From a virus (Duplodnaviria > Heunggongvirae > Uroviricota > Caudoviricetes), in IMG/VR virus record IMGVR_UViG_2684622619_000014: DNA of 20,707 bases; one strand, given 5' to 3'. The position numbers were made by a program. Positions 15,001 to 18,000 of this stretch are shown here, one piece after another (the first letter of the stretch is position 1; each line of letters starts with the position of its first letter).

Positions 15001-18000
15001 AGAGCATCATTTTTAGCTTTCGCATCAGCTAACTCCTTCGTGTATTTAGCATCGAGTGCATCAGCAGCACGCTGGCGCTGCTGCATGTCAGTAATGGTGG
15101 CGGTCGCCTGCTTCAGCTCACTGACTTTTTTATCACGCTGTTCTTTATAGGCGATGGCGTTATCACGGTAATGATTAACCGCCCATGACTGGCAGACGAT
15201 GATGCAGATAACCAGAGCGGAGATAATCGCGGTTACTCTGCTCATTGTTGCCCCCACAAACAGACTTCACGCTCAATCTCGCGGCGAGTCATCAGCCCTN
15301 NNNNNNNNNNNNNNNNNNNNNNNNNNNNNNNNNNNNNNNNNNNNNNNNNGGTTAATTTGTCTGGCGACCGTGGCAAGGTCTTTATTCAGGAGGGCTTTGC
15401 ATTCTGCTTCGATATACGTTTTACCGGGAATGATGTCTTTTCCGGTGTGTCCGTGACATACAGTCCATACGCCAACGATATCTTCGTATGGTATGTAGCT
15501 GACACCTTCCAGGCCATCGTCACCACTCGGACCAGTGATGAGCACAGACGCTATGGCAGCAGCCCCACCACCAATAGCAGCAGCAACAGCCTTGCGTAAT
15601 GATGGCGACATTATTCACCTCTCGCAGCCTTACGCTTATCTTCTTTAATCTTGAAATAAAGGTTTGTCAGATACGTCAGCAAGCCAAACACCAAGCTACC
15701 CAATACGCCTATTGCCACCCACTGGGATGGGGAGACTTTGTCCAGCAACTGCAGTAGCCAGTATCCCGTCCCCACCGCTGACGTGGTGTATGACACACCT
15801 GTTGTTATTTTTTCCATCTGGTACATACCCCGTCTCCCGTTATCCGGAAGCTGACAACAATAAAAAGCCACCAGTTAATTCCTGATGGCCCTGATGCATA
15901 AACGTCATAATACCTGACTGTTATGATTGACAATAATGATAATGTTTATATAGAAAGGTTCCCGATGTGTGTTACATATCATTTCTCCACGGGGAATATC
16001 CCCACGCCAGCGCAGACTCTTTTACCCGTTCTCTTCTGCGCTGGCTCTTTTTTATTATGCTGCTGCATTTACCTCTGGCACCATGCTTTCTATCTCAACA
16101 CAATACGTGGTACTTCTTGTAACCAATATCATAACGATTAATCGACATAGAATTTCTCCCGTGTACAGGAACAGAGTTAAAAAGCCGGAACCGGAATCAA
16201 ATCACAGGATGACCATCTGCCAGTGGCAGGTCATAAAAAAAAGGCCGCGCCATGCGCAGCCAGAACTCACAAGGAAAATGATAGAAGGAAATAACATTAG
16301 TGATGTACGCATGGCGCCTCCCGCTAAGTTCTGCAATGATCAAACAGAACTCGCTACGTGCCCTTAAAACTCGATCATTTAGCCCCTCCAAGGAGGATTC
16401 ACCATGCGGTTGATTTTTTAATAAACAGTAAACAAAAAAGTCAAGAATTATTCATTCTGTTCTTTCATCATCGGCCACAGCAATACCACAATGCCGCAGA
16501 CCAGAGCGCCATCAGTCAGTACCAACATTATCCTGCTGGTGAAATCCATCATCACCATCACTAAAAGCAGGATCACAACAGCAAGCAGACACAGTTTATA
16601 AAACAATGTTCAGGAAACGCATTCAGCATGCCTAAGGTTCTATTCCTACGAATAGCCAACTTGCAACTTAAAATATTATTTATGCAGCCAATTAAATTCT
16701 GGTCCTTACAATATCAACCTGAAGATTCTTATCTTGTGCTGATTGATAAATGACAAACCTTTTACTACCTGCATTGAAAGAAGTAGACAAAACCAGACAA
16801 TTATCATAACGAGCAAGAACATAATACCAACCATCATTATAATTAATCATTTCATATTCTTTCTTAAACTGTGGTTTGTAATATCCTGTCAGAAATGAAA
16901 AAAGCCAGAAATATGCCACAAAAGCAATCATCACAATCTCAAAAAAATGTTTTTTTATAAATGGCTTATCATAGAAGCATGATACCGATAAAAATCGCCC
17001 ATAAGATCTTATCGAAATTGTAACCGCCAGCGCAATCGCTGCTGACAGTAGCAAAAGAGGTACCTGAATCTTCTGTCTCAATATAGAAAACTCAATAATT
17101 GCCGGCACAAACAATAATTCCACAGCAAAATAAAGGCGAAATACATTTAGCTCTTGCATAGAATGTTTTCTTTTCACTGCGAAAAAGAATACAACACCAA
17201 TACCCCAACCGATAAGAAATATAGCAATGACGATAACTGCAAAAAATAAACTTCTGGCAACATCATCAACACCTGCACCTACAATCCACCATGGGAAGCC
17301 GTAGTAAAAAGAAGTACCCCATCCATAGAAATAAGCACTCCCCCATCCAAGGCATCCCATGTAGGCAATAAAAAGTGAAGAACTCCTGAGCAGCGCACCA
17401 TCCTTCATAACCACCCCAATACAAGATGATAACATTGGCTTACAACTCATAACAAAAGCAATTCAATGCCGTCAAGAGGTTACAGGCTAAAAAAACTCTA
17501 TTACATAGCAGCCAGCATGTTTACCGTACAAGTACAACTCAGGGCATAAAAAAACCCACTCGGCAGCGGGTTTATACATTTTTTACAACATACCAAATTT
17601 GCATGAAGTATATGGCTTTTAATCCAGTTTTGCAATATTTTGCTGTAAAAATGCTGCCTTTTGTTTTGAACGTGTTCTCGTCACAAGCAATAAAGCATCA
17701 CTATCAAGCTGTAGAAAAATGTGCTTCATTGCAACCCAGCGTTCAGTAAATGTCTCGGACCAGTTTTTTGTTGTCACTCCCACCAATGATGCCAGTGTCT
17801 GGTATTCATAGGCCTCACGCCCTGCAAGTTCGCTCTTCACATCCTGTGCAGCCAGCCAGATTAACGTCTTCAGGCGATCCAGTGTCTTACCTGCAATTTT
17901 TCTGTTACTTAACAAATCTTTAAACTCGCTCCATGCCCATTGCGTTATGGTGACCTGATGCCCCCATCGGACGCTTTCGCTGTAACACCAAAGCAACCAT

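Follow-up and report, generated by a model that had tools for sequence, protein, structure and literature searches.

The window analyzed here, the whole 20,707-nucleotide (nt) stretch of IMG/VR record IMGVR_UViG_2684622619_000014, is prophage Sp3 of Escherichia coli O157 Sakai. Between ECs_0815, annotated as "phage antiterminator Q," and ECs_0816, annotated as "membrane protein," it carries a sequence with the features of a late promoter (pR') followed closely by an intrinsic terminator (tR'), and this pair is the subject of the present analysis. The minus strand carries all genes around the pair, and the 1.9-kb stretch in which it sits recurs with 100% identity in many E. coli O157:H7 chromosomes. 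The evidence described below makes it very likely that the locus is a late-gene control module of a 434/Sp3-type lambdoid prophage, consisting of pR', a Q-binding element, a sigma70-dependent pause element and tR', and served by an antiterminator of the Q82 family.

The Q gene, the promoter and the terminator

The Q gene (17619..18308, minus strand) encodes a 229-amino-acid (aa) protein, named "bacteriophage antitermination protein Q" in RefSeq. Its sole Pfam match is PF06323 (E = 1e-91), which it covers from profile position 1 to 216 of 220. Yin et al. (PMC9388147) equate PF06323 with the Q82 family, one of three Q families that are unrelated to one another, and it is this family, not the lambda-type PF03589, that is found immediately upstream of pR'. 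Phage 434 has exactly the same Q protein (100% identity), and its GenBank record (OL657226) labels Q "Q82-like" and annotates the hairpin described below as "terminator," leaving the late promoter unmarked.

The first-pass annotation of this DNA had proposed a promoter, TTGCAA-N17-TATACT, overlapping the end of the Q gene, and this holds (17635-17607, minus strand). A promoter scan places the −35 hexamer TTGCAA within the last Q codons (17630..17635, minus strand) and the −10 hexamer TATACT at 17607..17612 (minus strand). Between them lies a 17-nt spacer, AACTGGATTAAAAGCCA (17613..17629, minus strand), which holds the Q stop codon TAA (17621-17619). In phage 82, the Q-binding element is located between the −35 and −10 hexamers (PMC4914094). 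The first 13 nt of the spacer are identical to those of phage-82-like relatives, and by analogy the spacer is a candidate Q-binding element. Transcription numbering was set by alignment to phage 82 pR' on three published landmarks: GCC at +15-17, U at +25, and an AT-rich segment at +18-25 (PMC5001585). Phage-82-like relatives (e.g., L004) read AAATCTGATATTTTGCCAATGTTGTAC, to which all of these landmarks fit if +1 is the first A, 7 nt past the −10 hexamer. The window aligns to these relatives without gaps, which puts the predicted +1 at A17600 (minus strand), with an uncertainty of ~1 nt.

The first-pass annotation overlooked an element on which, by analogy with phage 82, Q loading would depend. 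This is an extended −10-like signal, TGGTATGTT, at +6 to +14 (17587..17595, minus strand). In phage 82, a −10-like sequence in the early transcribed region of pR' induces a sigma70-dependent pause at +25 (PMC4914094). That sequence includes an extended −10; sigma70 engages it at an RNA length of 21 nt, and pausing occurs at +25/+26 (Bird et al., PMC5001585). The +18-25 segment of phage 82 is AT-rich, with U optimal at +25 (PMC5001585). The corresponding segment of the window reads AAAAAUGU and ends in U at +25 (17576), so that the pause site predicted by homology is U+25/A+26 (17575..17576, minus strand).

An intrinsic terminator had also been noted just downstream of the promoter, and it is present, at 17573-17548 (minus strand), about 28 nt past the predicted start. 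Scanning and folding identify a hairpin of 9 pairs, AAACCCGCU-GCCG-AGUGGGUUU, at +28 to +49 (17552..17573, minus strand); the hairpin can be read as AAACCCGCT-GCCG-AGTGGGTTT, running into seven T. The U-tract of 7 U spans +47 to +53 (17548..17554, minus strand), and together with the predicted 3' ends of a 53-56-nt leader RNA it covers 17545..17554 (minus strand). In the Sakai chromosome (NC_002695.2, plus strand), the predicted start corresponds to position 900,034 and these 3' ends to 900,086-900,089. The stem starts 3 nt past the predicted pause site. Folding energies are −12.0 kcal/mol for the hairpin alone and −15.3 kcal/mol for the leader of 58 nt, the latter with z = −3.09 relative to shuffled sequences. 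The scan tool and direct reading of the sequence concur on all promoter and terminator elements. The T-run is 7, 8 or 9 nt long in otherwise identical copies (including loci L002 and L034), with 7 in the window and 8 in phage 434.

Conservation and leader length among Q82-family relatives

How well is this arrangement conserved? About 250 loci encoding Q82-family proteins 59-100% identical to that of the window were collected from phage records, bacterial genomes and viral contigs, and per-position conservation was computed over 75 non-redundant representatives. The promoter, the Q stop codon and the extended −10-like element hold constant positions in 245 related loci, and of 157 distinct sequences 155 share precisely the layout of TTGCAA, 17 nt, −10 hexamer, 11 nt and TGnTAT. 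The two promoter hexamers and TGATAT..T (+6 to +14) are the best-conserved segments, and conservation declines after +17. At the −35 position, 61 of the 75 representatives have TTGCAA and 73 have TTGCAN, with the TTGCA positions 97-100% conserved. The family consensus of the −10 hexamer is TATATT, with A−11 and T−7 invariant. Within the pause element, G+7, T+9, A+10 and T+11 are 100% conserved and T+14 is 99% conserved, with TG at +6/+7 in 70/75. Position +25 is a pyrimidine in every representative (T in 65, C in 10), and the Q stop codon falls at −21 to −19 in 73/75. The −10 hexamer and TGnTATnnT are the most conserved non-coding positions, and they are kept across Q proteins down to 59% identity. 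The window holds a single copy of the full family signature, TTGCAA-N17-TATNNT-N11-TGNTATNNT, located at 17635-17587 (minus strand), and none of 100 shuffled versions holds one.

The leader and terminator behave differently from the promoter. Among 163 distinct 250-nt downstream sequences, 149 have an intrinsic terminator within ~100 nt, although the terminator sequence differs among lineages. Its presence in most relatives in spite of this variation suggests that the terminator is selected for. The leader is about 55 nt or less in 26 of these sequences (2 of them doubtful, being called on the first leader hairpin), 65-100 nt in 123, and >100 nt in 2, with no terminator found within 200 nt in the other 12. 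Besides the copies in 434 and Sp3, the short class comprises seven lineages (L006, L014, L017, L020, L107, L124 and L239), whose Q proteins are 63-68% identical to that of the window where measured. They share the stem of the window, at a position that agrees to within one nucleotide at each end, and have different loops. Across the short-class sequences, 6 of the 9 stem pairs are invariant and one compensatory change is seen, a level of covariation that does not exceed the shuffle control. The closest relatives of the window Q (86-93% identical) instead carry a phage-82-type leader of ~83 nt, so leader and terminator have been exchanged independently of Q. The end of the Q gene, the promoter and the pause element move as one rigid unit, and what lineages swap is the leader and terminator that come after it. 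Long leaders (loci L004, L007, L008, L011, L023 and others) have a first hairpin at about +14 to +37, directly after the pause element. This hairpin keeps its place but reads TGCCA...TGGCA or GTCGC...GTCGAC, depending on subtype. No leader of the short class has it, that of the window included.

Three known systems help to place the module. The first is phage 82 pR', which shares with the window the Q family (PF06323), the −35 sequence TTGCAA, the 17-nt spacer, the position of the −10 hexamer, the extended −10-like element at +6 to +14, U at +25, and an intrinsic terminator beyond it (t82 in phage 82). Phage-82-like Q proteins are about 86-88% identical to that of the window. The two differ at +15-17 (GCC in phage 82, GTA in the window), in the first leader hairpin (present at about +14 to +37 in phage 82, absent from the window), in the start of the terminator (about +50 compared with +28) and in the length of the leader (~83 nt compared with ~55 nt).

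The second is the Salmonella small RNA (sRNA) IsrJ of prophage Gifsy-1 (Rfam RF01393). IsrJ is a ~74-nt RNA that is highly transcribed in lysogens in all conditions (bioRxiv 10.1101/787010), and it has been reported to affect invasion. Its promoter reads ATTGCAAAACTGGATTAA...TATATT, and the RNA begins with the pause element AAAUCUGAUAU. IsrJ extends from the conserved UGUAAAUCUGAUAU at its 5' end to the first terminator, which identifies it as the terminated leader of a Q82-type late promoter. We did not find this description of IsrJ in the published accounts examined. The isrJ model matches directly 3' of Q in the bacterial loci L007, L011, L015, L023 and L024, and in Gifsy-1 it matches at a displaced promoter. 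The distance from the homologous start to the terminator in Gifsy-1 predicts an RNA of 72-75 nt, in agreement with the reported ~74 nt. By analogy, IsrJ therefore lends the promoter and start site proposed here indirect support from experiment. Gifsy-1 also keeps the TTGCAA/spacer piece ATTGCAAAACTGGATTAA intact as non-coding DNA upstream of isrJ, outside the Q frame, and hence the conservation of the promoter is not merely a coding constraint. In Gifsy-1 (L003 3201-4124), isrK, a C4-like antisense RNA with its targets, and the anti-repressor gene anrP are inserted between Q and the late promoter. Homology between IsrJ and the window leader is limited to the first ~15 nt, and IsrJ has two hairpins.

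The third system is the pR'-qut-tR' region of lambda, with its 6S RNA, together with the StxS region of Stx phages. Here too a constitutive late promoter adjoins Q, a promoter-proximal pause depends on sigma70, Q overrides a terminator, and the region downstream is a site of moron insertion. The Q proteins are unrelated (PF03589 or PF06530, as opposed to PF06323 in the window), and the lambda pause is at +16/17 rather than at +25 as in phage 82. The leader is 194 nt in lambda (termination at +193) and 258 nt in Stx phages, compared with ~55 nt in the window. The first-pass annotation had called the leader unusually short. Relative to lambda that description stands; relative to its own family it needs qualification, since leaders there are typically 75-95 nt, that of the window is only ~25-30 nt shorter, and the short form recurs in other lineages.

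Proposed mechanism and competing explanations

The earlier suggestion that the region has the architecture of Q-dependent antitermination is supported: the sequence elements, their fixed positions, their conservation, the Q family and the terminator fold are all observed here. The module thus shows all sequence features of a Q-dependent late promoter and terminator, and it is homologous to the biochemically characterised pR' of phage 82. That homology is the basis on which transcription start, pausing, binding by Q and Q-dependent read-through are predicted for this locus. RNA polymerase with sigma70 would initiate, probably constitutively, at A17600 from TTGCAA-17-TATACT. Sigma70 retained on the polymerase would rebind TGGTATGTT at +6 to +14, and the complex would stall near +25. 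Without Q, the polymerase would escape, transcribe the hairpin at +28 to +49 and terminate at the U-tract, releasing an RNA of 53-56 nt. Following induction, Q expressed from the early operon would bind the spacer between −35 and −10, which overlaps its own stop codon, and load onto the paused polymerase. The Q-modified polymerase would then pass tR' and two further terminators, at 16261-16243 and 15892-15864, and go on to the cargo gene (ECs_0816), the holin-lysozyme-Rz cassette, and the terminase and head genes.

Several observations weigh against this model. First, each motif by itself is at chance level in an AT-rich region. Between 15000 and 20707, 11 promoter-like sites were found compared with 14.6 expected from shuffled sequences, and 8 terminator-like sites compared with 5.2; scan rates give an estimated chance of ~8% that a promoter-like site lies no more than 80 nt upstream of a given terminator. 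The module can be considered real despite these figures because it is conserved among relatives. Second, the window has GTA at +15-17, which no other representative shares; of the 75, 40 carry GCC and 27 CGC. A long-lived pause in phage 82 needs GCC at these positions, and a change of GCC to AAA gives a ~5-fold shorter half-life without abolishing the pause (PMC5001585). The GC-rich segment, which is accessory rather than defining, is thus absent from the window, as is C+17, which is kept in 95% of relatives. Given the phage 82 mutant data, the pause at this locus may be weak, shorter-lived or shifted. Phage 434 is viable, and therefore Q loading must still work. Third, Sp3 is a defective prophage in Sakai, with portal and bet as pseudogenes, and for that host the module may therefore have lost its importance. 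Fourth, the leader has no entry in the Sakai list of Hfq-bound RNAs obtained by cross-linking and analysis of cDNA (CRAC; PMC4104026 Table S2), which has none at 9000xx-9001xx and for which the cut-off is not known.

What else might the locus do? One explanation, which is compatible with the antitermination model, is that the main role of the module in lysogens is to make a constitutive 53-56-nt regulatory sRNA like StxS or IsrJ, with antitermination being ancestral and secondary. Terminated pR' leaders can become Hfq-dependent sRNAs, as StxS did (PMC7547250), the homologous Gifsy-1 leader IsrJ has a reported effect on invasion, and the 3' end of the window leader, a hairpin followed by U7, is the usual Hfq-binding end. 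Set against this, the Sakai CRAC list has no Hfq-bound peak at the site, and only ~27 nt lie upstream of the terminator, mostly constrained as the pause element. Moreover, the leader falls below threshold for isrJ and for every other Rfam family: no family matches in the window at its gathering threshold, and isrJ (37 bits) is absent from 17300-17800 even at E <= 10. We regard a mainly regulatory role as unlikely. The best sub-threshold Rfam match at E <= 10 was STnc240, with 23.5 bits compared with a gathering threshold of 55; it was treated as terminator-driven noise and set aside.

A second explanation, also compatible with the antitermination model and of about the same low likelihood, is that the conserved TTGCAA belongs to paQ, a CII-activated promoter on the plus strand that would give rise to RNA antisense to Q. 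In the phage 434 record (OL657226), a CII site and a "paQ" −35 are annotated precisely here, and the plus strand has the box TTGCAATATTTTGC, TTGC-N6-TTGC, at 17630-17643, overlapping the −35 hexamer of pR'. However, the window contains 3 such boxes where about 2.5 would be expected by chance, and the upstream half-site is kept in only 51-81% of relatives, with N5 spacing in several lineages.

Least credible, and in our judgment highly improbable, is that the hexamers arise incidentally from the AT-richness of the Q gene end, that the hairpin terminates the early (Q) operon, and that the late genes are driven from elsewhere: promoter-like sites are indeed fewer than in shuffled sequences, and the −35 hexamer and most of the spacer are coding, so that their conservation could be partly coding, but the most conserved positions are the non-coding −10 hexamer and TGnTATnnT, Gifsy-1 keeps the −35 hexamer and spacer outside any Q frame, its leader IsrJ has been detected at the size predicted from promoter to terminator, and the window has no second promoter-plus-pause signature.

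What are the implications of the antitermination model? First, the well-understood late-gene switch of the phage 82 type gains a compact member that had not been annotated before, and the accepted mechanism is unchanged. Second, the annotation is improved: the late switch of O157 Sp3 and phage 434 can be placed to the nucleotide, where the 434 record marks the terminator only. A full-text literature search for ECs0815/ECs0816 returned no match. Third, the genes that would lie behind Q-dependent terminators include a membrane-protein cargo gene, a region of convergent sRNAs and the lysis cassette, and in Salmonella the sRNA IsrJ becomes the leader of a Q82-type late promoter. Fourth, the stem starts 3 nt past the predicted pause and the GC-rich segment at +15-17 is missing, and for these reasons the 434/Sp3 form might be a natural "minimal" substrate for Q82; alternatively, the 53-56-nt RNA might be an unrecognised constitutive sRNA of O157 prophages. 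We put forward this pair of ideas as speculation, with a small chance of being right. If Q does load efficiently at this site, a brief or shifted pause must be enough for Q82-type proteins to act on, and they must render the polymerase resistant to terminators within ~28 nt, a requirement that would constrain the Q82 mechanism. The Protein Data Bank has no entry for any Q82-family protein, and a literature search from 2022 onward found no paper or preprint reporting a Q82 structure. Since the family is without a solved structure, the compact leader could be useful as a short natural template for structural work.

Genes beyond the terminator and the surrounding region

Past tR', the minus strand carries in order the cargo gene, a DUF3927 gene, a phage 21-type holin gene, lysozyme, Rz and terminase. 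The cargo gene (16692..17435, minus strand) is the first downstream gene and has no Pfam match. The holin gene (15611..15826, minus strand; PF04971, E = 1e-32; "class II holin" in RefSeq) opens the lysis cassette. The first-pass annotation had both the cargo gene and the lysis cassette gated by the Q-like protein, and the two fare differently. Gating of the lysis cassette is well supported, because two further intrinsic terminators precede the holin gene on the late path: one at 16243..16261 (minus strand), whose stem of 8 pairs (7 GC) runs into 8 T, and one of 11 pairs at 15864..15892 (minus strand), just upstream of the holin gene. For the cargo gene the claim is weaker, as a promoter-like sequence, TTGTTA-18-TATCAT with an upstream TG, lies at 17455-17426 (minus strand) and would start transcription near 17419. 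The gene may thus have its own promoter and a shorter frame than annotated, and hence may not depend solely on Q. The 17419 start falls inside the annotated cargo frame, just upstream of its third ATG (17408), and GGGGTGG precedes that ATG.

Two convergent Hfq-bound sRNAs, the only ones assigned to prophage Sp3 in the list of Tree et al. 2014 (PMC4104026), map between the cargo genes and the holin gene: EcOnc13 at ~16251-16301 (minus strand) and EcOnc32 at ~15971-16059 (plus strand). The terminator at 16261-16243 (minus strand) coincides with the 3' end of EcOnc13 (PMC4104026 Table S2).

Among sequenced phages, the cargo gene was found in 434 and 2B8 only. In phage 2B8 (L257 1540-1830), a 98% identical copy of the gene is preceded by a Q of the lambda type (PF03589) and by a late promoter resembling that of lambda, and a decayed copy of the window terminator, AACCTGCCGCCGAGTAGTTTTTATG, is retained. 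From the combination of the cargo gene and the decayed terminator behind a lambda-type Q, it follows that the Q and cargo modules of the mosaic are joined at the terminator.

On the other side of Q, a 20-aa remnant of the N-terminus of a lambda-type Q lies at ~19886-19957 (minus strand), after the NinI phosphatase gene. It is followed by lpxR on the opposite strand (18783-19742, plus strand), by ylcG (18323-18445, minus strand) and then by the Q82-type Q. This arrangement of remnant, lpxR and ylcG is a scar left when the entire Q module was replaced. Within the lysozyme gene, the window has a run of 50 N at 15300-15349. From the holin start to the end of Rz, it is 128 nt shorter than O157 strain 3-5-1, and because of this shortfall the run looks like an assembly gap or a masked stretch rather than real sequence.

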